DNA of 64,000 bases from an uncultured delta proteobacterium (GCA_963815115.1 CAWFFN010000007.1:1173147-1237146); one strand, 5' to 3'; positions 38,330-56,376 are shown, numbered from the stretch's first letter. Notes: generated by a model not told the origin, from the letters alone. Made by a program: numbers and translations.

Positions 38330-38752
38330 GTGGCCACGGATCCCCTGTTCGCGTCACTGGTCCTGAGTGCCCTAGGCTGCCTGGCGATCCTGGGCATCGG
38401 TCGGGCGCTGATGCTGTCAGCCCGCGGTGCCGGATCATCGCCATCGACCGAGAACGCACAGATCGACCGCGATCGGCCGGGCGCATTGGTGACCGGGGGC
38501 ATCTTCGGCCGCAGCCGCAACCCAGTGTATCTGGGCCTCGCCCTGCTGGCGTTCGGAGTGTTCCTCGTCCTGGGACCGCTCGTGCTCTTGTTGCTGGCGA
38601 TCGTCTTCCTGGTCTACTTCCAGGTCCTGATCCGCCGCGGAGAACGGTTCTTGGCCGAACACTACGGTAATGCCTACCGGGAGTACGCCCGGTCTGTCGG
38701 CCGGTGGTGGACGTGGCGGCTGGGCGACGGTGCTCGGCGGACGAAGACATGA
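38330..38752 (+). CDS. Isoprenylcysteine/phospholipid methyltransferase-like membrane protein (internally shortened)
   Basis: LVTGGIFGRSRNPVYLG, IRRGERFLAEHYGNAYREYARSVGRW. Confidence 0.6.
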   Translation: MATDPLFASLVLSALGCLAILGIGRALMLSARGAGSSPSTENAQIDRDRPGALVTGGIFGRSRNPVYLGLALLAFGVFLVLGPLVLLLLAIVFLVYFQVLIRRGERFLAEHYGNAYREYARSVGRWWTWRLGDGARRTKT

Positions 38753-38804
38753 AGAGCTCCGTATACTCGAATCGCCTGCAGGAGGTCGGCGAATGGAGGA
38801 CGCC

Positions 38805-39623
38805 ATGCAGTTCGACACAATCGGGGTGACGTGCGATGGGCCGCTGGGGCGTCTGATGCTGGCGCGGCCCGACCGCCTCAACGCGATGGGCGCTGCGATG
38901 CTTCAAGAACTGGCCGAAGCCGCCCACTGGTTCGATCGCCAGCCGGAGGTGCGCGTGGTCATCATCAGCGGCGCGGGCCGCGCGTTCAGCGCCGGCGCGG
39001 ACCTCCAAGATCGGCCGATCGCCGCGGCGGCGCCGGAGTCCGGGAACGCCTGGGGGATGCGTCGAGAAGTCGGCCAGTACGGGCTCCGTATGGCGGACGC
39101 CATCGAGCAGATGCGGCCGATCACCATCGCACAAGTGCACGGTTACGCCGTCGGCGGCGGGTTGGTGCTGATGGCTGCCTGCGATCTTCGCGTGGCGGCG
39201 GAGGACACGGTCTTCTCGATTCCGGAGATCGAGCTCGGTATTCCTCTCGCGTGGGGAGGCATCCCGCGACTGGTGCGTGAGATCGGGCCGGCGCTGACGA
39301 AAGAGTTGGTGATCACCTGCCGCCGCTTCACGGCAGCCGAGGCCAAGGCGGCGGGGCTGATCAATCGCGTCGTGCCTGCGGCCCAGCTCCACGCCGAGGT
39401 GGAGACGTTGGCGCGCACAGTGATCGAGAAGCCACCGGTGCCCGTGACCATCACCAAGGAACACGTCAACGCCATCGCACGCGCGATGAGCGCCGGCTTG
39501 ACCGGGTTCGCCGACGGCGACATGCTACTCGGTGTCGCGTCTGATCCAGAATCGCGTGCCGCCGCAATCGCGTACATGGAACGCTGGGTGAGGCGCAAGG
39601 GAACCGGGGAACGTTCGCCCTGA
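38805..39623 (+). CDS. Enoyl-CoA hydratase/isomerase
   Basis: RPDRLNAM, FSAGADL, GYAVGGG, ACDLRVA, FSIPEIELG. Confidence 0.9.
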   Translation: MQFDTIGVTCDGPLGRLMLARPDRLNAMGAAMLQELAEAAHWFDRQPEVRVVIISGAGRAFSAGADLQDRPIAAAAPESGNAWGMRREVGQYGLRMADAIEQMRPITIAQVHGYAVGGGLVLMAACDLRVAAEDTVFSIPEIELGIPLAWGGIPRLVREIGPALTKELVITCRRFTAAEAKAAGLINRVVPAAQLHAEVETLARTVIEKPPVPVTITKEHVNAIARAMSAGLTGFADGDMLLGVASDPESRAAAIAYMERWVRRKGTGERSP

Positions 39624-39909: not shown

Positions 39910-41106
39910 TCAGATCACACCGTCGCGCGTGAGGCGCGCGAGCTCGGTCCCGTCGAGTCCGAGGATCTCGCCGTACACGTCGCGATTGTGCTCGCCGAGG
40001 AGCGGCGAGCGCGTCACCGTGGTCGGCGAATCGGCGAGCTTGACCGGGTTGCCCGGGACGTCGAGCGTGCCGCGTGTCGGGTGCTCGATCGTCGTGATCA
40101 TGCCGCGCGCGCGCAGGTGCGGGTTGGTGAGGATGTCGCGGGTGTCAAAGACGGCGCCGCAGGGGACGCCGTTCGCCGCCATCGCCTCCATGACGGTGAC
40201 CTTGTCGCGCGTACCGGTCCACTCCTCGATCATGGTGTGCAGCTCCGCCTGGTGGTGGTTGCGCCAGTTGACGTCGCCGTATTCGGGGTGACCGATCAGG
40301 TCGGCGCGGCCGATGGTCGTCAGCACGCCGTTCCACATCGCGGGGCTGTTGATCATCATGTACGCGTAGTCATTGTCGCCACCCGGCGCACACTTATAGA
40401 GGTCGCTCGGCGCGAGCACCGGGATGCGGTTGCCGCTGCGTATCGTCGGGTAGCCGGTGATGTAGTGGGCCAGCATCGACGGGCGCACGAAGTTGACGAC
40501 CGCCTCCTGCATCGAGACCTCGACGCGCTGCCCCCGGCCCGTCTGCAGGCGCTGGATGTACGCGGCGAGAATGCCGACCGCGCAGTGGACGCCGCTGCCC
40601 GTGTCGCCGAGCGTGATCCCGAGCTTGATCGGCGGCCCGCCGAGCTCGCCGTTCACGCTCATCGCGCCGCCGGTTGCCTGCGCGATCATGTCGAAGGCCT
40701 TGAAGGACGCGTACGGACCGCTGTCGCCGAAGCCGCGGATCGTCGCGTAGATGAGGTCGGGGTGGAGCGCGGACAGGGCGTCCCACCCGAGCCCCCACTT
40801 GTCGAGGGTGCCGAGCGTGAAGTTCTCGATGAGCACATCGAAGCGCGGCAGCATCTGCCGGAACAGCGCCCGGCCGCGCTCGTCCTTCAGGTTGAGCGTC
40901 ACGCTGCGCTTGTTCGCGTTCAGCAGCACGAAGTAATAGGCATCGGTGCAGGGGGTGTCGGGGATCATGCGGCGGCCTTGGTCGCCGCCGTCGGGGTTCT
41001 CCACCTTGACGACGTCGGCGCCGAGCCAGGCGAGGAGCTGCGTGCACGACGGACCCGCCTCGAACTGCGTGAGGTCGAGAATGCGTATGCCGGAGAGTGC
41101 GGCCAT
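39910..41106 (-). CDS. Family III CoA-transferase (formyl-CoA transferase-like)
   Basis: LSGIRILDLTQFEAGPSCTQLLAWLGADVVKVE, LNANKRSVTLNLK, DVLIENF, FDMIAQATGG, SPLLGEH. Confidence 0.92.
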   Translation of the reverse strand: MAALSGIRILDLTQFEAGPSCTQLLAWLGADVVKVENPDGGDQGRRMIPDTPCTDAYYFVLLNANKRSVTLNLKDERGRALFRQMLPRFDVLIENFTLGTLDKWGLGWDALSALHPDLIYATIRGFGDSGPYASFKAFDMIAQATGGAMSVNGELGGPPIKLGITLGDTGSGVHCAVGILAAYIQRLQTGRGQRVEVSMQEAVVNFVRPSMLAHYITGYPTIRSGNRIPVLAPSDLYKCAPGGDNDYAYMMINSPAMWNGVLTTIGRADLIGHPEYGDVNWRNHHQAELHTMIEEWTGTRDKVTVMEAMAANGVPCGAVFDTRDILTNPHLRARGMITTIEHPTRGTLDVPGNPVKLADSPTTVTRSPLLGEHNRDVYGEILGLDGTELARLTRDGVI

Positions 41107-41349
41107 GGAGCACTTGCTCACCCATCTCCGCCTGACCGTCAAGCAGCAGACGCCTCTTGAGGAAACGATCAGGAAAAGGCAGCAAGGCGCGGGCTGAGAG
41201 CTGATCCCCGTCATGCTCCCATCGCTGAGACGCCCGAGACAGCCATGACCGGCTGCGCCGGCAGGACAGTCGTGTCATAGTCCCCGGAGCCGGCGCCCGG
41301 CCTACACCGCCGCGCCGGCCTCCGGCTTGCCAAAGCGAGGGAGACGCCG

Positions 41350-44445: not shown

Positions 44446-44709
44446 CGGCGTTCACGAGTACGCCAACCAGTGCGCGCAGTGCAAACTCTGCGTTCGTCGT
44501 CGGCAGCGGTCGATGGTTCGCAACAGGGATGCTCGGCTGCGGCATCGTCCGCCCGTGCACGCTGCGGTCCAGCACGACGCAGCGTGTTCCGCCGGGCGCG
44601 GACGGGTGTCCCCGCACACGGGCGGGTCGGCGGGCGTGAGCCGCGCCGGTCGCCCGCCTCGCGGGTGCATTGACGCCACCGTCCCATCGGAAGGCGAAGG
44701 TCCAACGGA

Positions 44710-44888
44710 AGTCCGACGCGATTCGTCATAGCCCTTCCGAGCACGTCTCACGGGACTTCCTGTCGACAACGGTCAGCGGAGTGCTGCACCACTTGGAGGC
44801 GGAGGGGCTCGTTCAGCCGGAGCCTGAACAATGGCGCTCAAGCAGACCGCTGCACGCGCTCCGGCATACCTACGCGTGTGGTACTTGA
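44710..44888 (+). mobile_element. Tyrosine recombinase C-terminal fragment
   Basis: PLHALRHTYA (HxLRH box II). Confidence 0.55.
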
Positions 44889-45431: not shown

Positions 45432-45772
45432 TCACCAGTGCGTGGCATCGCGCGGTGTCCTCTCGAGCGTGTCGCGGACGACCGTTTCGACCTGTGCATC
45501 AGTGATCCGCCGGGGCGCACCGGGCCGCGGTTCATCGAGCAAGCCCTCGAGCCGGCGCGCCACGAACCGCGCCCGCCATTTCCCCACCATCTGTTGCGTC
45601 ACACGTACGCGCGCCGTTGCAGCGGTGTTCGGCGCGCCGGTCGCGCACGCGAGCACGATGCGCGCCCGCTGCGCGAGCGCCTGCGCCGTCTTTGGCCAGC
45701 GCGCCCACTGCTCCAGCGTCTCGCGCACCGTCGCCATCACCAGCAGCTCGGCCTGCGGTCGCCCCGGCGTGT
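45432..45772 (-). mobile_element. IS630-family transposase N-terminal remnant
   Basis: GRPQAEL...AQALAQRARIVLACA...VGKWRARF...GLLDEPRPGAPRRITD...TLERTPRDATHW-stop. Confidence 0.85.
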
Positions 45773-46076
45773 TGAAGGACGCCGAGGCGGGGCAGATTGC
45801 CGCTCAGGGGTTGATGTCGGCCCACACGCCGGCCGCGTGGTCGGATGCGGCGCGACATTCGAGAAGGATATCCCCTTCAATCAGGACGCCACTGGTCACT
45901 TCCTCCTGAAGCCCGTCCAGATGGGGATATCGAGCTGCGGCCCGACGCTCATCGACCTCGTGTTCAAGACCACGGACTCGGACGGCATGTCCACCGTGGC
46001 GGTCCGGCGGGTGATCCTCGCGTTCCCCGCCTGCTGGGACGGGCAGAACCGCTGGAGCGGGTTCCCGGCACGGGTC

Positions 46077-49000
46077 TTACGCTACCGATACACCGTCGGC
46101 TTCGAACACCCTGCCGCCGCTTCGCTCGCGCTCCCAATGGCCCGGGCGCCCGGGCATGCGCGGCGCCTCGGTCCAGAAGAACGTGAAGCGATCGACGCCG
46201 GAGGGAAGAACGGCCTCGTAGCCCCCGTCCGGCCGGGGCGTGAGCGGAACGTTGTAGACCGGATCCCACCTCCCGTCCGCGTGGGCGACTCCAGCATGGA
46301 CGTAGCCGCTCCCGCTGACGCGTACCCGCAGGCGGCGGTCCGCCGGGAAGTGCTTGCGCTCGAACGTCCAGAGGGCCGTGTCGCCAACGTCTCGCGGGCA
46401 TTCCGGAAGCGTCGCCGCTCCGGACTCCTTCAGGGCGACGGTCGCCATGGCGATCAGATCGATGGTCCGGAGGTAGCCGCGATGCAGGTCTGTGATCGGC
46501 CGCCCGGGCGTCTCGAGCATCGCGCCGCCGACGTCGATGACGATGCCCACCCCCTCGGCCATCGCCCGGTCGATGCCGGCCGGCGCATCGGAGTTCCCGA
46601 CGTACGCGACCTCGTCGGGATCGAGCTCCGGAATCGAGGGGACGGATTTCTGCCTCGAGAGTCGCACCAGCGCGGCGAACCCCTCGGCCTTGGCGTTGCC
46701 CGCGCTCGTGGATACCAGCCGGAACGCGCCGTCCTGAAAGATGTACAGCTCGTTGCCGCCCGAGAGGACCAGGAGCACATTGGCGAGCAGACGCGAGCGG
46801 GGACCGAGCGCGACGATCAGAGGCCGCAGGAGACGGTAGTAGAACCAATCGAAGGGCGCTGCCGCATTGAAGACGAAGACGCCGCCCGCCGCGAGAAATT
46901 CCGCGAGCACCTCGATGACGCCGTGCTCGAGGTCACCCCCGCAGAACGCCGTCAGCATGTCGTCGAGGTCGGTCACGGTCGCGCATCGACCCGTCTTCCG
47001 GATCGTGACCAGGAACCCCTCGAGCGCGACGACCTGCGCCGGGGACAGGTCCAGCAGCAGGTCCTGCTGCATCTCTCCAGGCGATCTCCGCTGTTCGGAC
47101 GTCGCCGCCCGGAAGTAGGCGCCGAGCATCTGCGTGATGTGAGCCTCCCCCCACGGCTCCGGCGAGGTCTCGCCCTCCGTCGTCTCGTAAGCGAGGCGCA
47201 CGAACAGCGGTCCCACCTCGACGAGCCGTGCGGGTCCACCCGGCGTGACGGCCACCCAGCCGAAGTCCGTGAGGAGGAGGCCTCCGTTGCCAGTCCCATG
47301 CTGGCGGCCGACGTCGATCGCGATGTAGTCGCGTCGGAGCCACGAGCCGGGCGCGTAGCGGATCTCGCCGTTCTTGCTCGCGGTGTGCCCGATGATCTGG
47401 GGCAGCAGACTGTCGTGGTACCGGTAGTGGTCCACCTCGCCGAGATCGGGGGTGAAGATGCCCGCGGGCTCGTAGCCGACCTCGCCGGGAAGACGTGGCT
47501 CCCGCGCATGACTGGTCCCGGGGCGGAAGATCTCGTGGGGCAGGTCGCGGGTAGTGATCCGCTCTCGTTCGACGAGCGCGCAGCGCAACACGTCGTTCAC
47601 CCAGGACGCGATCTCGCTCGGGTCGCATGCGCCGCGCTCGCGCATCGCCATGTCGACGATGTTCGGAAGGATGCCGCCGTGGACGAACAGCTTGTCGTGG
47701 TCGAAGTACGCGGCGCGGACGACCAGCCCGGGATGTCGGTCGGGGTGGAGCGCCGCCTCCCTGATCGTCGGCCACAGGCGGTACCCGGGGGACCCCTCTC
47801 CGCCCTGACCGCCCTCCCCGTCCACGTAGAGATCGTGGTTGCCGAGCGTCCACACGATCCTCCCGCCGGCGGCGTGCGCCTGGCAGGCGAGGCGGTGGAT
47901 GAAGTCGAACACCTCCTGGAGATCTCGTCCGTGGCCCACGTCCCCGGTGAACACGAGCGTCCCGTCGCGTGCGAGCCACTGGTCCGACGAATCGATGAAG
48001 CCGAGGGCGCGCAGGACGTCCTTCAGCGCGTGCAGCTCACCGTGGACGTCTCCGACGACGCCCACCCGCTTCGTGCAGTGCTTGAGGAGGTCCGAGACGT
48101 CACGATGCGCCGCGACGGCCCTCTCGAGCCGCACGTCGTCCACGACGACGTCCTCCACCTCGAGGACGTGGACCTCGTATGGAGCCAGGCCGAAGGCGAA
48201 GCCACGGCGCGCGAGGTCCTCGCCGGAGCGGACATACGTCTCGCCCGTGAAGACGTCGTGCAGGTGATAGTGGATCGCCGGATCGTCCTGGACGTCCACT
48301 TCCGGCGGCAGGCGCAGCCGGCCCCAGTGCTTCACGAGCCTCGGCGCGCCGTCCGAGACGTTCGCGATCAGGACCAGCGGCCTCTCCCGATGGATCCTCA
48401 ACCCCGCCCGGAACTGCGCGAGCGGACGCTCGTCGTGTACGCCGAGGACGGGCAGCGGGCGGTCGTAGATCGCGTCGGACGCCGGCGGTTCGAGGATGGA
48501 GTGGAGCAGGCGGCCGAGCGGGTGTCTCGAGAGCGTCCAGAGCTGGACATGCAGGACGGTGTTGATGCCGTGGGAGCCTCGTTGCTGCCACGTCCGGTCG
48601 AAGCGACGGAGGCTGAAGTCCCCGTGGCCCTGCTGGATGCTGCCGGAGGCGACGTGGAAGTCGCGCACGATCTGCGCGGCTTCGGCGGCACTCTCGCGCG
48701 GAACGTCGGGCGAGGCGGTGGCGTTCTGCTCTACGCGCCAGAGGGCCCACCGGCTGCCGTCCCGCGCCGCCCGCAGGAGGTCCTCGAGCGAGCGTTGGTC
48801 GGTCGGGCATGCGGCCAGAGGATCCTGGACCTCCCGAGCGCCGCCGGCGACTTCGATCACGCCCATGTGCGGATCGAAGATCGTGAGTCGTTCCGCCGCT
48901 CCGGAGCCGATGAGGCCGACGTTCAGGATGGAGAAATCGAGGTGCGAGACACCGTACCGCCACAGGTCCTGCATGAACCGCGTGTAGCGCCCCTCCAGCT

Positions 49001-49736
49001 CTCGCGCCGCGGCGGGGCGTCCCGCCCGGACCTCTTGTTCGATCGCGACCGCGAGAGGCGTGACGAACGGCTGGATCACCAGGACGGAGACGACGACACC
49101 GTCGAGCGCCCGCTTGTCGTTCGCAAAGTCGTCGGGATAGTGGACACGGAGCGTCCTGGGAGCGTTTCCGAGGGAACGCACGATCCCGATCGACCGGAAG
49201 CGCTCGAGGAGCTGCCGTTGCTCGCCGGTCAGCAGCCCGTACGCACTCTCGGCGAGGTACACCCGGTTCGGTACGGCGAGCGGCCCGTATGCCTCGAAGG
49301 AGCGGATATGCTGCCAGATCGCGGGATGGAGGGAGCCGTCCGGCTGCACGCCGTGATCACGCGCCCACTCGCGTTGCGGCTGCATCCCCGAAGGCGCGAG
49401 CGGCGGGATGCCTTCCTGGCTCTTCGCATACTTCACCACGAACCGGTTCGCGGGCTCCGCCAGCGCCATGACATGGTAGCCCTCTCCGAGAAGACGCAAC
49501 CCGCCGTCCAGGGACTGGAGTACCTCGCGATCATCGGGCAGGTCGTCGGCGTCGAGAAAAGCCGCGCGCGTGACGGGTATCAGCTCGGCATCGAGGATGC
49601 GGTCCCGGATCCAGTTGGCACCCCCGTGACCCTCGTCGCGGTGATAGGCTCGCAGCACTCGTTCGAGAATCGCCTCGAATCGAGATTCGACGAGCTCGTG
49701 CGCGGAGGATTCGTCTCTGGCGGTCCCGTTGCTCAT
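46077..49736 (-). CDS. Multidomain protein: kinase-like + GH13-type C-terminal beta-sandwich + PPP metallophosphoesterase + HAD-like + glucoamylase-type C-terminal module
   Basis: LLGEGY/VVKYAK/HLDFSILN/IFDPH; LVLIAN...LHDVFTGETYVRSGEDL..RG...LAPYEVHVLEV; VVGDVHG/TGDVGHG/LGNHD/FVHGG/IIGHT/IAIDVG; TDLDDMLT/YVGNS..GID; WTFERK...FTFFW...WE. Confidence 0.85.
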   Translation of the reverse strand: MSNGTARDESSAHELVESRFEAILERVLRAYHRDEGHGGANWIRDRILDAELIPVTRAAFLDADDLPDDREVLQSLDGGLRLLGEGYHVMALAEPANRFVVKYAKSQEGIPPLAPSGMQPQREWARDHGVQPDGSLHPAIWQHIRSFEAYGPLAVPNRVYLAESAYGLLTGEQRQLLERFRSIGIVRSLGNAPRTLRVHYPDDFANDKRALDGVVVSVLVIQPFVTPLAVAIEQEVRAGRPAAARELEGRYTRFMQDLWRYGVSHLDFSILNVGLIGSGAAERLTIFDPHMGVIEVAGGAREVQDPLAACPTDQRSLEDLLRAARDGSRWALWRVEQNATASPDVPRESAAEAAQIVRDFHVASGSIQQGHGDFSLRRFDRTWQQRGSHGINTVLHVQLWTLSRHPLGRLLHSILEPPASDAIYDRPLPVLGVHDERPLAQFRAGLRIHRERPLVLIANVSDGAPRLVKHWGRLRLPPEVDVQDDPAIHYHLHDVFTGETYVRSGEDLARRGFAFGLAPYEVHVLEVEDVVVDDVRLERAVAAHRDVSDLLKHCTKRVGVVGDVHGELHALKDVLRALGFIDSSDQWLARDGTLVFTGDVGHGRDLQEVFDFIHRLACQAHAAGGRIVWTLGNHDLYVDGEGGQGGEGSPGYRLWPTIREAALHPDRHPGLVVRAAYFDHDKLFVHGGILPNIVDMAMRERGACDPSEIASWVNDVLRCALVERERITTRDLPHEIFRPGTSHAREPRLPGEVGYEPAGIFTPDLGEVDHYRYHDSLLPQIIGHTASKNGEIRYAPGSWLRRDYIAIDVGRQHGTGNGGLLLTDFGWVAVTPGGPARLVEVGPLFVRLAYETTEGETSPEPWGEAHITQMLGAYFRAATSEQRRSPGEMQQDLLLDLSPAQVVALEGFLVTIRKTGRCATVTDLDDMLTAFCGGDLEHGVIEVLAEFLAAGGVFVFNAAAPFDWFYYRLLRPLIVALGPRSRLLANVLLVLSGGNELYIFQDGAFRLVSTSAGNAKAEGFAALVRLSRQKSVPSIPELDPDEVAYVGNSDAPAGIDRAMAEGVGIVIDVGGAMLETPGRPITDLHRGYLRTIDLIAMATVALKESGAATLPECPRDVGDTALWTFERKHFPADRRLRVRVSGSGYVHAGVAHADGRWDPVYNVPLTPRPDGGYEAVLPSGVDRFTFFWTEAPRMPGRPGHWERERSGGRVFEADGVSVA

Positions 49737-50109
49737 GGTCGATCGGGAGCGGTGAGATGACAAGACCCTTCAGAGCCAATCGAGGCGGCCGGTCAAGACG
49801 CTTTCTCACCTCGCCTGTCCCATGTCCCGCACCGCCGGCTTGATCGAGTGACTCGCGCCGGTCGGCTCGCCATCGCGGCGATCGCTTGACCGCCGGCGTC
49901 GCCGGGGGGCCGCGGCTACCGCACGGATCGGCACGAGCCCGGCGCACGACGCGAACCAAAGGAGCGTGGCCGACGCCCCGTACGGGGCAGGGGCCGTGCT
50001 CCGACGGGCAGCGTCGACCTGCCCTGAATAGAGAGCGCCCCTATGCGTGGACGACGTGGGCGTTCCCAGACCAAACTTGGAGAACCTACCCCCCCTGCGG
50101 CGCTCTGCC

Positions 50110-50225
50110 ACGCTGAGCGAGTCCGACATCGCCACCGTGCTCGGCACAGCCTCCGCGGTGCGAGATCAGGCGCTGCTGGCTGTGCTCCTCGGTGAACGAT
50201 CGATGCGCGTAGAGCAGGCGCTGGG
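50110..50225 (+). mobile_element. Tyrosine recombinase catalytic-domain start fragment
   Basis: TLSESDIATVL...RDQALLAVLL...MRVEQAL. Confidence 0.4.
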
Positions 50226-50409
50226 ACGCGGGCCTACGGAGAGAGCCGTGTCTTCGGGCGCGCATGACCGGCAGCCATCGAAACAGTCGCGACACCCTAG
50301 TCGACCACTCCCACCTTACCGCCATTGCGACATGCTCGTTCGAAACTCGTTTCACGCGCCGGATCCTGGTATGAGGAGACCCCCCGCATCGCGGACGAGG
50401 AGACATCGG

Positions 50410-51600
50410 ATGGCGGACACACCTCGACCCTCGGGACCCCTGAGTGGAATGCGTGTCCTGGACTGCACGCACGTCATCGCCGGTGCGTGGTGTTCGATGT
50501 TGCTTGCCGACCTGGGCGCCGACGTCATCAAGATCGAGCCGCCCAAGGGCGAGGTGACGCGCACCTCAGTGGGACCGTTTCGCGCCTACGACTTCATCAA
50601 CCGCAACAAGCGTGCGATCGCCGTCGACATGGCGAAGCCCGACGGCGCGGCGGCACTCCGGCGTCTGGCGGTTTGGGCCGACGTCTGGGTGGAGAACTTT
50701 CGTCCCGGCGCGCTCGACCGAATTGGGCTCGGCTACGACGATCTCACTCGAGTCAATCCGGCACTCATTTACTGCTCGATCTCGGGCTTCGGGCACGACG
50801 GTCCGTACCGCGAGCGCGGCGGGCTCGACCTGGTCACACAAGCCATGAGCGGCATCATGAGCTTCGTCGGCCACCCAGGCGGGACGCCCGCTTCGACAGC
50901 CGTGCCCATTTCCGATCTGAACGCCGGAACCTTCGGCGCGCTCGGGGTCGTCGCCGCGTGGGCTCACCGCCAGAAGAGTGGCGAAGGGCAGCGCGTCGAA
51001 GCGACGTTGCTCGAGTCGGCGCTCGTCTACACCGTATGGGAAGCGGGGATGTACTTCACCCTCGGCGCAATCGCCCAGCCGCGCGGCTCGAAGCACCCTC
51101 TCGCCGCACCCTACGAGGCGCTCAAGACGGCTGATGGGTGGATCGTCGTTGGGGTCAACAACCAGAGCCTCTGGCAGCGCTTCTGCGAGGCGACTGGGCA
51201 AGCGGCGCTCCGTGACGATCCGCGCTTCGCCGACGCAATCTCGCGCGTCATGAACCGAGAGGAGCTGAAAGTGGCGATCGAAGCGCGTCTGACCACCGAC
51301 ACGACGGCGGCTTGGCTGGACAAACTGCTGGGACAGGGCATTCCCTGCGGGCCGATCAATACCATCGACCAGGCACTCGCCGACCCGCAGGTGCAGGCGC
51401 GCGGGCTGATCGTACGCATGGGTAACCGCGACTTCATCGGCAGTCCCATCCGCATGTCGCGAACACCACCGGGGTTGCGTCGCGGTCCAGCAGAAATCGG
51501 TGAGCACAGCCGCGAGGTCTTGATCGAGGCGGGCTTTTCGGCCGGTGAGGTAGAGGACCTGCTCGCCAGCGGAGCGCTGCTGCAAGGAGCACAGGCATGA
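50410..51600 (+). CDS. Family III CoA-transferase (CaiB/BaiF)
   Basis: PLSGMRVLD, LLADLGADVIKIEPP, NRNKR, DVWVENFRPG, YCSISGFG, EIGEHS. Confidence 0.92.
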   Translation: MADTPRPSGPLSGMRVLDCTHVIAGAWCSMLLADLGADVIKIEPPKGEVTRTSVGPFRAYDFINRNKRAIAVDMAKPDGAAALRRLAVWADVWVENFRPGALDRIGLGYDDLTRVNPALIYCSISGFGHDGPYRERGGLDLVTQAMSGIMSFVGHPGGTPASTAVPISDLNAGTFGALGVVAAWAHRQKSGEGQRVEATLLESALVYTVWEAGMYFTLGAIAQPRGSKHPLAAPYEALKTADGWIVVGVNNQSLWQRFCEATGQAALRDDPRFADAISRVMNREELKVAIEARLTTDTTAAWLDKLLGQGIPCGPINTIDQALADPQVQARGLIVRMGNRDFIGSPIRMSRTPPGLRRGPAEIGEHSREVLIEAGFSAGEVEDLLASGALLQGAQA

Positions 51601-52370
51601 CGGGGACGATTCACCTCAGACGCGAAGGCGAGCACATCGCCCTGCTCGAGATCGACAACCCGCCGCGCAACATGCTCGGCACGGCCATGCGGGCAAAGCT
51701 GCGCGAGGGCCTCGCGCAACTTGCCGCTGATCTTTCCGTACGGGCCGTCGTCGTCAGCGGTCGCGGGAAGGCGTTCTGCAGCGGCGACGACCTGCGGGAG
51801 GAGTTCGAGGCGGTCGCGGGAGGCAGCGAGAGGGGCGCGAACCTCCTCGACTTCGGCCGGCTGCTCGACCAGGTGGAGTCGTTTCGGGCGCCTGTGATCG
51901 CCGCGATCAACGGCTGGTGCGTGGGTGGCGGCGTCGAGCTCGCGCTCTGCTGCGACCTGCGCCTCGCTTCGACGGACGCGAAATTCGTCTGCGCCGGCGT
52001 GAATATCGGGCTCACGGCGTCGGCTTACCGTCTGCCCCGCCTCATCGGCGTCGCCCACGCCAAGCACATGCTCTTCACCGGTCAACCGTACGACGGGGAG
52101 ACCGCCGCGCGCTTCGGGCTGATCAGCGATATCCATCGCCCAGACGAGCTGCTCCCTGCCGCCCTGCGGCTCGCGGAACGGATCGCGTCGCGCGCCCCGT
52201 TGTCCGTCGAAGCGAGCAAACGACTCGCCAGCAGCGCTCTTGACCTGACGCCGCAGGAAGCTCTCACGGCGCAGGCCACGGAGCTCGCGACGCTGATTGG
52301 CACCGCCGATCACCTTACCGCGGTGACGGCCTTCCTGGAGAAGCGCACACCGGTGTTCACGCGCAGCTAG
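51597..52370 (+). CDS. Enoyl-CoA hydratase/isomerase
   Basis: ATGA overlap; FCSGDDL, PVIAAINGWCVGGGVELALCCDLR, AFLEKRTPVF. Confidence 0.9.
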   Translation: MTGTIHLRREGEHIALLEIDNPPRNMLGTAMRAKLREGLAQLAADLSVRAVVVSGRGKAFCSGDDLREEFEAVAGGSERGANLLDFGRLLDQVESFRAPVIAAINGWCVGGGVELALCCDLRLASTDAKFVCAGVNIGLTASAYRLPRLIGVAHAKHMLFTGQPYDGETAARFGLISDIHRPDELLPAALRLAERIASRAPLSVEASKRLASSALDLTPQEALTAQATELATLIGTADHLTAVTAFLEKRTPVFTRS

Positions 52371-54392: not shown

Positions 54393-54592
54393 TTGAGCCC
54401 GGTCAACCGCTTCGACGGGGAGGGCCTGCCGATCTTCCACGTCAAGGACATTCCCCCGGTCTCACCGAGCGGTCTGCGCTTGGACCGTCCCGAGTTGTAC
54501 TTCAGCGAGGCGGCGAGCCCCTATGTCGTCGTGGGTGCCGGCACGACGGAATTCGACTACGCCAAGGGCCAGGAGAACGTGTACAACACCGC
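54393..54592 (+). pseudogene. UPF0182 family internal fragment
   Basis: SPVNRFDGEGLP...DIPP...RPELYF...EFDYAKGQENVY. Confidence 0.7.
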
Positions 54593-54609
54593 TCGCTGGC
54601 GAAGGACTG

Positions 54610-54889
54610 GAGGCGCTGGAACGTCACGGTCAACTGCGTCGCGTTCAGGTTCATCCAGACCTGGCTCACGCAGACGTTCGAGGGCGAGCCGCCGCGCGTC
54701 GAGGTTGGGAACCGCAGCCTCAAGGTCGGCGTCGACGCGGCCCAGGCCGAGCTCCTGAAGCAGCTGATCCCGCTCGGCCGCGTCGGCACGCCGGAGGAAG
54801 CCGCGGGCGCGGTCTGCCTCTTCTGCCTGCCGGAATCGGACTACGTGAGCGGCGAGGTCCTGGTCGCGGGCGGCGGCCTGAGGATGTGA
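54610..54889 (+). pseudogene. SDR (3-oxoacyl-ACP reductase-like) C-terminal fragment
   Basis: NVTVNCVAF.FIQT...IPLGRVGTPEEAAGAV...SDYVSGEVLVAGGG. Confidence 0.75.
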
Positions 54890-55039
54890 AGCGTCTCAGC
54901 CGAGGTGGGCGCGGAAGGACTTCTCGATGCGCGCCCAGCTGTCGGCCTGTGGCACGCGGCGCTTCGCGCGGCGGGCAGATTGAGCCGCAACGCGCAGTAG
55001 ACCCGCTGATCTCGCTCGGCGATGTGTTGCTAGACCGGC

Positions 55040-55270
55040 TACTGCTCGTTGGGGTGGCCGGCTCACCAGGTCGCTCGCCTCGGGGTCCAGGGCGACCGTG
55101 CGGGCGACGTGCTTCCTCATGCCGCCCCCGGCGCGTTCGATTGGTGGCCTTGCCCCGCCGCACGCGGACTGTGCGGGTGTCCGAGTCGAAGTCCGCCACG
55201 TCGAGCTGCACCCCTTCCCCGCAGCGCAAGCCACCGCGGTACAGCAAGACCACCGAGCGTCCGATTGCGT
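55040..55270 (-). mobile_element. Tyrosine integrase internal fragment
   Basis: LLYRGGLRCGEGVQLDVADFD...VRVRRGK... / RTVALDP. Confidence 0.7.
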
Positions 55271-55422
55271 GCGCCTGTCGGGCCTTCCCGGACCGCCCGC
55301 GACCAGCGTCACCCATCCGGCCGGTTTCGACCGTCTCTCGTGATTGGAGACCGCCTCTGGCTCGGGTGCCACGCGGCGGTTGCCATCTGCGATACGGCTT
55401 GCCAACGCCGCACGTGCTCTGC

Positions 55423-56259
55423 ATGAGACCCCTCCTCCCCGCTCCCCAACACTTCACCCACGACGGACGTCGCATCGCTTACCGCCTCCACGGCGCTGGC
55501 CCGCGCGTCGTCGTGCTGACGCACGGCCTCCTGATGGATAGCCGCATGTTCAGCAACCTCGCGCCGGTACTCACTGAACGGGGTCACCGGGTGATCACGG
55601 TCGACATGCTCGGACACGGCTCCTCCGACCAGCCGCACGACATGATGGCCTACTCGATGCCGCAGTTCGGACACGACGTGATTGCACTGCTCGACCACTT
55701 GGGGATCGAGCAGGCGGCCGTAGGCGGGACGTCGCTGGGCGCGAACGTCGCTCTCGAAGCCGCGGTCGCCGCGCCGGGGCGCGTTCGCGCGCTGGTACTC
55801 GAGATGCCCGTGCTCGAGAACGGCATCGCCGCTGCCGTGGCCGCCTTCGTGCCGCTGGCGCTCGCGCTCCGGGTGAGCCAGCCCGTCATGCGGCTGGTTG
55901 CCGCGCTGACCAGACGGATCCCACGCACCCACTTCCTGCTCGATCTCCTCCTCGATTTCGTCCGCCGGGACCCGAGCGCGTCGCTCGCCGTGCTCGACGG
56001 ACTCACCTTCGGCCGGATCGCGCCGCCGGCCGACGAGCGCCACCGCTTGCCCCATCCCACCCTGGTGATCGGCCACCCATCGGACCCGATCCATCCGTTC
56101 AGCGACGCCGACATGACCGCGCGCGAGCTCGCCGGCGCGCGACTGGTCGAGGCCAGCTCGATCCTGGAGTGGCGGCTGCGACCGTCCCGCCTCGACAGGG
56201 AGCTATGCGCTTTTCTCGACGAGGTCTGGGCCGCGCCGGGCGTGTCGGCGGCAGGATAG
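55423..56259 (+). CDS. Alpha/beta fold hydrolase
   Basis: VLTHGLL, VDMLGHGSS, GTSLG, PTLVIGH..DPIHP. Confidence 0.85.
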   Translation: MRPLLPAPQHFTHDGRRIAYRLHGAGPRVVVLTHGLLMDSRMFSNLAPVLTERGHRVITVDMLGHGSSDQPHDMMAYSMPQFGHDVIALLDHLGIEQAAVGGTSLGANVALEAAVAAPGRVRALVLEMPVLENGIAAAVAAFVPLALALRVSQPVMRLVAALTRRIPRTHFLLDLLLDFVRRDPSASLAVLDGLTFGRIAPPADERHRLPHPTLVIGHPSDPIHPFSDADMTARELAGARLVEASSILEWRLRPSRLDRELCAFLDEVWAAPGVSAAG

Positions 56260-56376
56260 CGTAGGGCCAATCACGTCCGTCCCTCGACCCGTTGGCTATT
56301 CATGCAGGTTGAGCTAGTCGGACCATCCGGTCCACCGAAGCAGAGCCAGGTCGTGACCCTCTTCCAATCGGGCAGC

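Follow-up and report, generated by a model that had tools for sequence, protein, structure and literature searches.

Enzymes that put phosphate on storage α-glucans, or take it off again, are described from eukaryotes, where GWD and PWD, as well as SEX4, LSF2 and laforin, join one or more carbohydrate-binding modules (CBMs) to a phosphate-adding or a phosphate-removing domain. Here we describe a bacterial protein that would share this layout and is encoded in a 64,000-nucleotide stretch of DNA from an uncultured delta proteobacterium (GCA_963815115.1, CAWFFN010000007.1:1173147-1237146; hereafter, the window, meaning the whole stretch). Judged from its modules, the gene product is best explained as a cytoplasmic multi-enzyme with three catalytic centres, namely an N-terminal protein-kinase-like (PKL) module, a PPP-type metallophosphatase and a HAD-fold domain, and two non-catalytic β modules of the kind found in α-glucan enzymes. 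Our tentative reading is an α-glucan-associated phosphate writer/eraser acting in the cytoplasm, for which we infer both the target and the phosphoryl acceptor. In contrast to GWD and PWD, the proposed writer would be a PKL-fold ATP phosphotransferase and not a PPDK-type dikinase, and in contrast to SEX4, LSF2 and laforin, the erasers would be a PPP metallophosphatase and a HAD enzyme and not a cysteine dual-specificity phosphatase (DSP). Moreover, unlike in eukaryotic glucan phosphorylation, writer and erasers, known here from sequence, lie on one polypeptide in a bacterial host. Pfam finds no DSPc match (CX5R type) in the window protein and, among matches at E ≤ 1, no PPDK-type family; DSPc is found only in remote relatives of the N-terminal module, where this superfamily of laforin and SEX4 (E 6e-14) occurs together with debranching and disproportionating enzymes.

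Other described systems share parts of this architecture. The motifs GDxHG, GDxxxxG, GNH[DE] and GHT are common to the branch comprising the Shewanella cold-active phosphatase, ApaH, Shelph and lambda-phosphatase, whereas the match to the Shewanella enzyme spans the first three motifs only and the domain studied here is embedded in a five-module protein, with an invariant loop (DxxGGQGGxxSxGYRLWP) and a conserved insert of ~90 residues that are unlike this branch. In TreS–maltokinase (Pep2/Mak) fusions and GlgE, a PKL-fold kinase is joined to a GH13-type β-sandwich, as is predicted for the window protein; here, the order is reversed (kinase, then sandwich), the GH13 barrel is missing, and the N-terminal module has no significant match to the APH/maltokinase profile (P 0.057). 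The HAD domain has the fold of type IIB (Cof-type) phosphatases and phosphomutases, and its remote relatives show motif I as DxDxT and motif IV as GD..ND, whereas the Vicinamibacterales-type proteins carry DLD[DE]ML, a relaxed motif IV and always a CBM-like domain behind. In Pnkp and 'Swiss army knife' RNA-repair proteins, one polypeptide likewise brings together kinase and phosphatase, the latter a binuclear metallophosphatase, a HAD domain or both, but Pnkp has a P-loop kinase and a ligase domain, both unlike the protein described here. Finally, the only remote relatives found for the N-terminal module and the HAD–tail unit lie in giant proteins of the Omnitrophota kind, whereas the present protein is a compact, stand-alone five-module form from Acidobacteriota-type soil bacteria that lacks a glycosidase or transferase domain.

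The architecture itself was found undescribed in the literature searched on bacterial glucan phosphatases and glycogen phosphorylation, Shewanella-like phosphatases, Vicinamibacter and starch-binding-domain kinases, in line with the original prediction that it is not a described family. Passages of a 2026 review on α-polyglucan solubility (PMC13666283) call the agents that phosphorylate glycogen unknown, state that laforin is apparently lacking in prokaryotes and that prokaryotes have no known machinery, and pose as an open question how glycogen phosphorylation is mediated there. In the 300,000 characters searched of a 2024 review of prokaryotic α-glucan enzymes, the terms 'glucan phosphatase', 'laforin' and 'phosphate monoester' do not occur. 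Each catalytic superfamily of the window protein is known; new are the predicted PKL family, the kinase–sandwich–phosphatase unit with its phosphatase exchange, and the combination with a HAD and CBM-like unit in one bacterial protein.

Architecture and catalytic centres of the window protein

The gene had been predicted as one intact reading frame of 1219 residues, and its start, codon bias and conserved relatives agree with this. On the minus strand, the frame 46077..49763 (1228 codons) is open from a TTG at 49763, nine residues beyond the ATG at 49736, which coincides in the alignment with the start of the closest relative, P0003. Residue numbers throughout refer to the 1228-residue translation from the TTG. 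The codon-position GC content (0.73/0.47/0.86) resembles that of other called genes of the window, and a 1440-residue plus-strand frame over the same DNA was rejected as an Arg/Pro-rich shadow frame. A word-indexed search of 5.8 billion proteins yielded 167 matches at E ≤ 0.001; at least 120 relatives were listed, 57–96% identical and mostly 1190–1250 residues long. Scanning one genome per species, we found 18 loci, 17 of which encode the family. Full-length homologs thus exist and, because these relatives and the loci in species-representative genomes encode the same protein, a chimeric assembly, considered at the outset, is excluded.

The motifs from which a five-part architecture had been proposed were all located in the translation: LLGEGY, VVKYAK, HLDFSILN and FDPH in the kinase-like module, GDVHG, GDVGHG, GNHD, HGG, GHT and IDVG in the phosphatase, and DLDDMLT and GNS..GID in the HAD domain. 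Aligned with 25 relatives (56–97% identity to the window protein), every one of these motifs is invariant or at least 90% conserved, and the full-length architecture is genuine and maintained in the family. Pfam detected, as predicted, no glycoside hydrolase (GH) catalytic domain, Metallophos being the sole Pfam family in the protein, and no signal peptide or membrane segment was seen by eye at the N-terminus.

Among the catalytic centres, the metallophosphatase is, by its motifs and matches, certain in identity. Pfam Metallophos (PF00149) covers residues 566–699 at E 1.6e-9, its score of 39 bits exceeding the cut-off of 21.5, and the best PDB sequences are those of the Shewanella cold-active phosphatase (1v73, 2z72 and 2zbm; E ~2e-9, residues 565–649), consistent with the Shewanella-like/ApaH-like type that had been proposed. 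A PDB profile search with the full-length alignment returned four phosphatase chains only. Conservation across the 25 sequences is complete or at least 90% at G571, D572, H574, G575, G607, D608, G641, N642, H643, D644, H695, G792 and H793.

The N-terminal module presents a kinase catalytic set in canonical order and spacing, comprising a Gly loop (G93-E-G95), K111/K114, E157, D276-x4-N281 and D297. In a set of 32 sequences (the 25 family members and seven remote relatives at ~30% identity), G95, K111, K114, D276, N281 and D297 are kept throughout, and E157 in 31. The AlphaFold2 model of residues 10–560, with a mean predicted local distance difference test score (pLDDT) of 70.8, has the topology β1-β2-β3, helix, β4, followed by a helical lobe, with the catalytic residues placed thereon. 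Aligned by hhalign to a Ser/Thr kinase profile built from 25 kinases of related genomes, the module scored P 0.0017 (probability 16%, 47 columns), and D276, N281 and D297 coincided with the catalytic Asp and Asn of the kinases and with the Asp of their DFG motif; the alignment to nine APH paralogues of the own genome was in the same register at P 0.057. Controls ranged from P 0.055 to 0.63, with the four other modules scoring P 0.055–0.57 against the Ser/Thr kinase profile, and the positive control, APH against Pkinase, reached P 1e-14. Given the conserved catalytic set, the model topology and the in-register alignments, we consider a PKL fold likely. The kinase-like fold of the original prediction draws on invariant motifs and weak, in-register profile alignments; Pfam, NCBIfam, PDB sequence and Foldseek searches do not recover it.

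Further searches outline how isolated the module is. No stand-alone relatives were found, all 56 word-indexed matches being fragments of the same family, and a search started from the remote relative P0162 gave three proteins only. Pfam at E ≤ 10 on 13 proteins carrying the module returned PIP49_C as the sole kinase family (E 0.33, one member), a PDB profile search with a mixed and noisy alignment of the module (1001 profile positions) gave 0 matches, and among viral structures Foldseek matched the N-terminal model at E 0.016 at best. PHROG and PADLOC, searched with five proteins each, gave no match. As far as domain libraries go, the module is a kinase-like family that they do not recognise and that is new here.

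The profile ranking, with Ser/Thr kinases ahead of APH small-molecule kinases, also speaks for a different function. The protein could be a glycogen-tethered kinase/phosphatase switch for other proteins, for example GlgE, GlgP or GlgA, with the β modules only localising it; as such, it would correspond in bacteria to phosphorylase kinase plus glycogen-targeted PP1, or of AMPK with its β-subunit CBM. A passage of a 2024 review reports that phosphorylation by PknB inhibits mycobacterial GlgE and that the reversing phosphatase is unknown, as would suit such a switch. The same holds for the kinase-like and PPP superfamilies, which both mostly act on proteins, for the nearest solved phosphatase, deposited as a protein-tyrosine phosphatase, and for the DSP domains, commonly protein phosphatases, that stand in for the phosphatase in relatives. 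Protein kinases, however, typically carry Lys or Arg two or four residues past the catalytic Asp, and the catalytic loop here is without it, position D+2 being S, T or A in the 32 sequences. In addition, sugar-phosphatase-type HAD replacements in relatives and the second, HAD–CBM-like unit fit small-molecule or polymer substrates better, and no conserved partner gene adjoins. We regard a protein switch as somewhat unlikely, though as the foremost alternative to the glucan reading.

Between the kinase-like module and the phosphatase lie a helical region and the first β module. When the model of residues 10–560 was submitted to Foldseek, 42 of the 43 PDB rows listed were GH13 enzymes, led by TreS and GlgE, with ~150 aligned columns and a best E of 2.3e-3 (none reaching 1e-3). 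Pfam matched GLGE_C (E 0.23) and Glyco_hydro_36C (E 0.0088) to the sandwich in one relative each. These matches, weak and almost exclusively to GH13, agree with the predicted resemblance to the C-terminal domain of GH13 enzymes and GlgE.

The C-terminal half of the protein combines the HAD domain with the second β module. The AlphaFold2 model of residues 850–1228 has a mean pLDDT of 77 and a predicted template modelling score (pTM) of 0.80. Its best Foldseek match is α-phosphoglucomutase 4bnd (E 1.1e-3, probability 1.00), and the rows listed are mostly HAD enzymes, including the IMP nucleotidase ISN1, 3dao, KdsC, trehalose-6-phosphate phosphatase and SerB, at identities of 10–14%, such that the HAD fold is well supported. 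D932 is invariant, S1001 and D1065 are conserved in at least 90% of the 25 sequences, and D934 is Asp in 22 of them. Six remote relatives show motif I as DMDDTL or DLDDTL and motif IV as (G/A)D..(N/I)D, whereas the window copy has DLDDML (Met for Thr) and GNS..GID (Asn for the first Asp); the proposal of a HAD-like domain with non-canonical motifs is thereby borne out. From these residues, activity of the domain in the window copy is likely, though not certain. The tail domain is modelled with a pLDDT of ~80–90, and its ESM Atlas look-alikes are CBM53/CBM25 clusters, 16 of 30 being CBM53 at 0.90–0.91; the Ig-like domain of α-glucan water dikinase and CBM20 rank lower. Presumably, its FTFFWT and PGHWE strings are reminiscent of the aromatic-rich C-terminal strands of CBM25/53. 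Pfam has no match to the tail in the window protein or its relatives, and Foldseek on the HAD–tail model listed HAD enzymes only and no CBM. We consider the tail probably a candidate CBM25/CBM53-like glucan-binding module; the resemblance to the tail domain of GH15 glucoamylases that had been predicted finds no support.

Module exchange in remote relatives

Exhaustive HMMER searching of 1.84 billion cluster representatives returned 2208 proteins at E ≤ 0.001 and 75 at E ≤ 1e-30. The informative remote matches are long proteins of 782–7695 residues, those with a named source coming from Omnitrophota or Endomicrobiales, and their architectures were mapped with hidden Markov models (HMMs) of the modules together with Pfam. 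The kinase-like module and the sandwich are followed by DSPc in P0162 and P0326, by a second sandwich and DSPc in P0182, and by a HAD domain in P0181 and P0194 (Hydrolase_3 at E 9e-7 in P0194, only a weak HAD_SAK_2 match in P0181); in P0129, the pair is followed further on by a second sandwich with a metallophosphatase. P0322, a protein of 2187 residues from an Omnitrophota metagenome-assembled genome (MAG), carries GH77, GDE_C (amylo-α-1,6-glucosidase), the kinase-like module, the sandwich and DSPc, so that one chain in effect couples debranching and disproportionation to a pair of kinase and phosphatase. P0158 joins the metallophosphatase to a cytidylate kinase and a GH63-like domain. The HAD domain and the tail occur together behind GH77 in P0249, before an RNA 3'-phosphate cyclase in P0232, and alone in P0247, P0259 and P0263. 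Throughout the mapping, the sandwich stands between the kinase-like module and the phosphatase, and the tail after the HAD domain.

Comparison of these architectures shows the kinase-like module, the sandwich and the phosphatase as one evolutionary unit, in which the phosphatase has been exchanged among three unrelated superfamilies (metallophosphatase, DSP and HAD), and the HAD domain with the tail as a second; both units occur fused to predicted α-glucan enzymes (GH77, glycogen-debranching and GH63-like). Because phosphatases of three superfamilies stand behind the same kinase–sandwich pair, kinase and phosphatase would act on the same substrate system. The fusions to GH77, GDE_C, GH63-like and DSP domains strengthen the α-glucan link that had been proposed for the window protein. 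According to the part of a preprint on Omnitrophota giant genes that lists domains, these include glycogen-synthase-like GT5, PPDK_N, NUDIX and HAD. Large uncharted stretches were seen in P0241 (3846 residues) and P0228 (2559 residues), where Pfam assigns nothing at E ≤ 0.001 along thousands of residues; the module HMMs place the HAD domain and tail in the former and the metallophosphatase in the latter.

The junction of HAD and tail with an RNA 3'-phosphate cyclase speaks for a further alternative, that is, nucleic-acid or nucleotide end-processing of the Pnkp or 'Swiss army knife' type, or a conflict-system effector, with kinase, metallophosphatase and HAD healing RNA ends or processing capped or polyphosphate nucleotides. 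NCBIfam gives weak matches to the ApaH equivalog (NF001204, 17.7 bits against a cut-off of 176, E 0.0017) and the bacterial Pnkp equivalog (TIGR04075, 13.4 bits against a cut-off of 750, E 0.016), both far under the cut-offs, and weak HAD_SAK_2 (E 0.014) and PTP-SAK (E 1e-5) matches in relatives, the latter weaker than DSPc (E 6e-14), point the same way, as do the patchy occurrence of the gene beside an insertion sequence (IS) fragment and, as a lead only, one ESM look-alike cluster of the N-terminal module that carries Kinase-PolyVal (score 0.89). Known end-healing kinases, however, are P-loop enzymes and not PKL. Ligase, nuclease and nucleic-acid-binding domains are all absent, PADLOC and PHROG were negative with five proteins each, conserved partner genes are lacking, and the carbohydrate-type modules would be left unexplained. 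We consider end-processing very improbable.

Proposed mechanism and host α-glucan metabolism

The host genome encodes α-glucan enzymes elsewhere. On contig C7 (288278-293636), GlgE (730-residue frame, GlgE_dom_N_S E 1e-60) is found immediately upstream of a TreS (GH13)–maltokinase fusion, a 1206-codon frame with HGDYHLGQ and IIDFEGE motifs; GlgC scores above its cut-off, and there are phosphorylase-family genes. With GlgE, TreS–maltokinase, GlgC and phosphorylase encoded, the cell very probably makes α-glucan, and a glucan substrate would exist. The idea that the window protein supplies a missing maltokinase of the GlgE pathway was rejected, as TreS–maltokinase is already next to GlgE.

A soluble substrate is another possibility. 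The kinase could act on a free sugar released from glucan, such as glucose, maltose, trehalose or a compatible solute of the glucosyl-glycerate type, with HAD and metallophosphatase as phosphomutase or as relief-valve phosphatases for maltose-1-phosphate or glucose-1-phosphate. The top structural match of the HAD domain, α-phosphoglucomutase, is in keeping with this, and trehalose-6-phosphate phosphatases are also listed; furthermore, one relative has a GH63-like domain of the mannosylglycerate-hydrolase or trehalase type, and a sugar kinase with the PKL fold, maltokinase, occurs naturally as a fusion to GH13 TreS, also in the own genome. With this fusion, however, the host already has a TreS–maltokinase, and a soluble sugar needs no two glucan-type binding modules. 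The hhalign score against the APH-type kinases of the own genome is weak as well. A sugar-phosphate or compatible-solute enzyme is quite unlikely in our view.

For the α-glucan writer/eraser that we tentatively propose, the two β modules would hold the enzyme on glycogen or maltooligosaccharide, and the kinase-like domain would transfer the ATP γ-phosphate to a glucosyl hydroxyl on either of them. Metallophosphatase and HAD would take the phosphate off, possibly at different positions; alternatively, the HAD domain might serve as a phosphomutase on released glucose phosphate. Such a system would parallel the plant-starch cycle of phosphorylation, degradation and dephosphorylation with different catalytic folds.

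Several observations weigh against this proposal. At the level of folds, PKL and PPP domains act most often on proteins; the modelled catalytic loop has a pLDDT near 31; no kinase is among the 43 PDB rows that Foldseek listed for residues 10–560, the three kinase-type rows in the viral library BFVD (ranks 3, 23 and 48) having E 0.04–0.46 and probability 0.07–0.15; neither model, 10–560 or 850–1228, has a Foldseek match at E ≤ 0.001; and the N-terminal module is without a match in Pfam, NCBIfam, PDB sequences, PHROG and PADLOC. At the C-terminal end, 3 of 25 relatives carry another residue at the second HAD aspartate, the window copy reads GNS instead of GDS, and the CBM assignment of the tail is language-model similarity only, at scores that occur by chance in 4–10 of 100 shuffled proteins. 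The fusion evidence is weaker than usual because the giant proteins also carry unrelated domains, among them RNA 3'-phosphate cyclase, cytidylate kinase and ribose-phosphate pyrophosphokinase-like domains. Finally, the glg or tre genes that the original prediction had suggested looking for in the neighbourhood adjoin the gene neither in the window nor at 16 related loci.

Distribution, surroundings and implications

The gene belongs to soil bacteria and is rare. Of the loci found, 12 are on Vicinamibacterales contigs, three in 'uncultured Acidobacteriota' and two on short contigs of one 'Eisenbacteria' MAG; the 18th is a phosphatase-only match in a Marinifilaceae MAG. The three organism-named relatives among the matches listed are all 'Vicinamibacterales bacterium' and annotated as metallophosphoesterase only, and database names for the protein are 'metallophosphoesterase' or 'hypothetical' only. 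The gene was found in 1 of 25 genomes of its own order, which is the window's genome, in 0 of 4 others of the same genus, in 1 of 401 sampled genomes of its own phylum, and in 7 of 401 sampled genomes of the order holding the Vicinamibacterales MAG G424. In a midpoint-rooted tree of 33 sequences, built without an outgroup and with unnamed rows kept, the window protein falls into one clade with two unnamed proteins from metagenomes, and Acidobacteriota rows lie on both sides of the root. HMMs of the five modules found no paralogues among 50,132 six-frame fragments of the own genome. Pseudogenes or assembly errors account for homologues broken into two or three frames in some genomes of Vicinamibacterales or Acidobacteriota (G755:C30:253302-256889; loci L017 and L018); one such match holds two TGA codons in frame. 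Among public DNA runs, the best holders carry 0.09–0.22 of the sampled words, and no RNA run is listed as carrying the gene; low-depth, short soil-metagenome contigs, 90–99% alike, cover the gene in parts, and none spans it.

Metabolic genes of other kinds surround the gene (Table 1): the immediate neighbours encode two family III CoA-transferases, enoyl-CoA hydratases, an amidohydrolase and an adenosine deaminase. When the window is compared with 16 related loci, the most widely shared neighbour family, CoA-transferase, is present in only three of these 17, and it is the only neighbour type that recurs, beside the related loci L002 and L004. A promoter scan of the gene found 0 sigma-70-like sites, and two terminator-like sites upstream of it do not exceed shuffled sequences.

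Table 1. Positions of the gene, its predicted modules and nearby features in the window; coordinates count from its first letter.
Feature	Residues	Positions	Strand	Basis or remark
Whole coding sequence, 1219 residues		46077..49736	-	ATG at 49736, stop included
N-terminal helices and PKL module	30-345	48729..49676	-	Motifs, hhalign, AlphaFold2 topology
Helical region	346-441	48441..48728	-	Invariant RDGSRWALW motif; alignment, AlphaFold2
β-sandwich like GH13 C-terminal domain	442-546	48126..48440	-	Foldseek, module mapping
PPP-type binuclear metallophosphatase	562-852	47208..48080	-	Pfam, PDB, invariant motifs GDVHG, GDVGHG, GNHD, HGG, GHT
HAD-fold domain	917-1117	46413..47015	-	Nucleophile D932, plus D934, S1001, D1065; Foldseek, remote relatives
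C-terminal seven-stranded β domain	1127-1224	46092..46385	-	WTF, FTFFWTE, PGHWE; AlphaFold2, ESM Atlas
IS630-type transposase, N-terminal helix-turn-helix fragment		45432..45740	-	Pfam HTH_32/HTH_29 (E 4e-10), HTH_28, HTH_23; downstream of gene
Family III CoA-transferase		39910-41214	-	Brackets region
Family III CoA-transferase		50047-51600	+	Brackets region
Enoyl-CoA hydratase		38670-39623		Brackets region
Enoyl-CoA hydratase		51597-52370		Brackets region
GH10 (xylanase family) open reading frame, 278 residues		59229-60065	+	E 2e-49

The flanks had been described as IS630 and integrase debris. The IS630 part is confirmed by the Pfam helix-turn-helix fragment; the integrase part is not, as Pfam finds no integrase in nine small flanking open reading frames and the remnants amount to two HxLRHTYA-like strings of the tyrosine-recombinase type, seen by eye in small frames at 44640-44888 (+) and ~45585-45611 (+), the second antisense to the IS630 fragment. 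These strings may have arisen by chance or be heavily decayed remnants. Four congeneric genomes show no synteny with the region at the DNA level. Just past the stop codon, 192 bp (45848-46039) are 82% identical to the same-genus contig G001:C274 and may be a small repeat or the end of an IS. A stretch of 1.07 kb at 55244-56311, which overlaps the 3' part of an α/β-hydrolase gene (54523-56259), is 95% identical to the same-genus genome G002; the remaining matches that the four genomes have to the surrounding 19 kb are short and do not exceed 92% identity. This pattern points to a segment that is mobile or was exchanged recently. Given the adjoining IS630 fragment, the very patchy distribution and the lack of synteny, conserved neighbours or a paralogue, it is plausible that this is an accessory gene moving horizontally, as had been proposed.

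We consider it unlikely that the family, together with the kinase–sandwich–phosphatase unit it shares with the giant proteins, is the first known means by which prokaryotes covalently and reversibly phosphorylate a storage α-glucan, with a PKL 'glucan kinase' that uses ATP directly and is unrelated to the plant dikinases, and with erasers drawn from three interchangeable superfamilies. If the glucan-kinase reading is true, however, the protein would be a candidate enzyme class for what puts phosphate on glycogen, and it would be categorically new. As a compact soluble bacterial protein in which a kinase-like enzyme is joined to two phosphatases and two glucan-type modules, it is a directly testable candidate. 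Should the substrate turn out to be a protein or a sugar phosphate instead, a PKL family outside the domain libraries would stand, and the exchange of three phosphatases behind one kinase–sandwich pair would remain a clear case of functional coupling.

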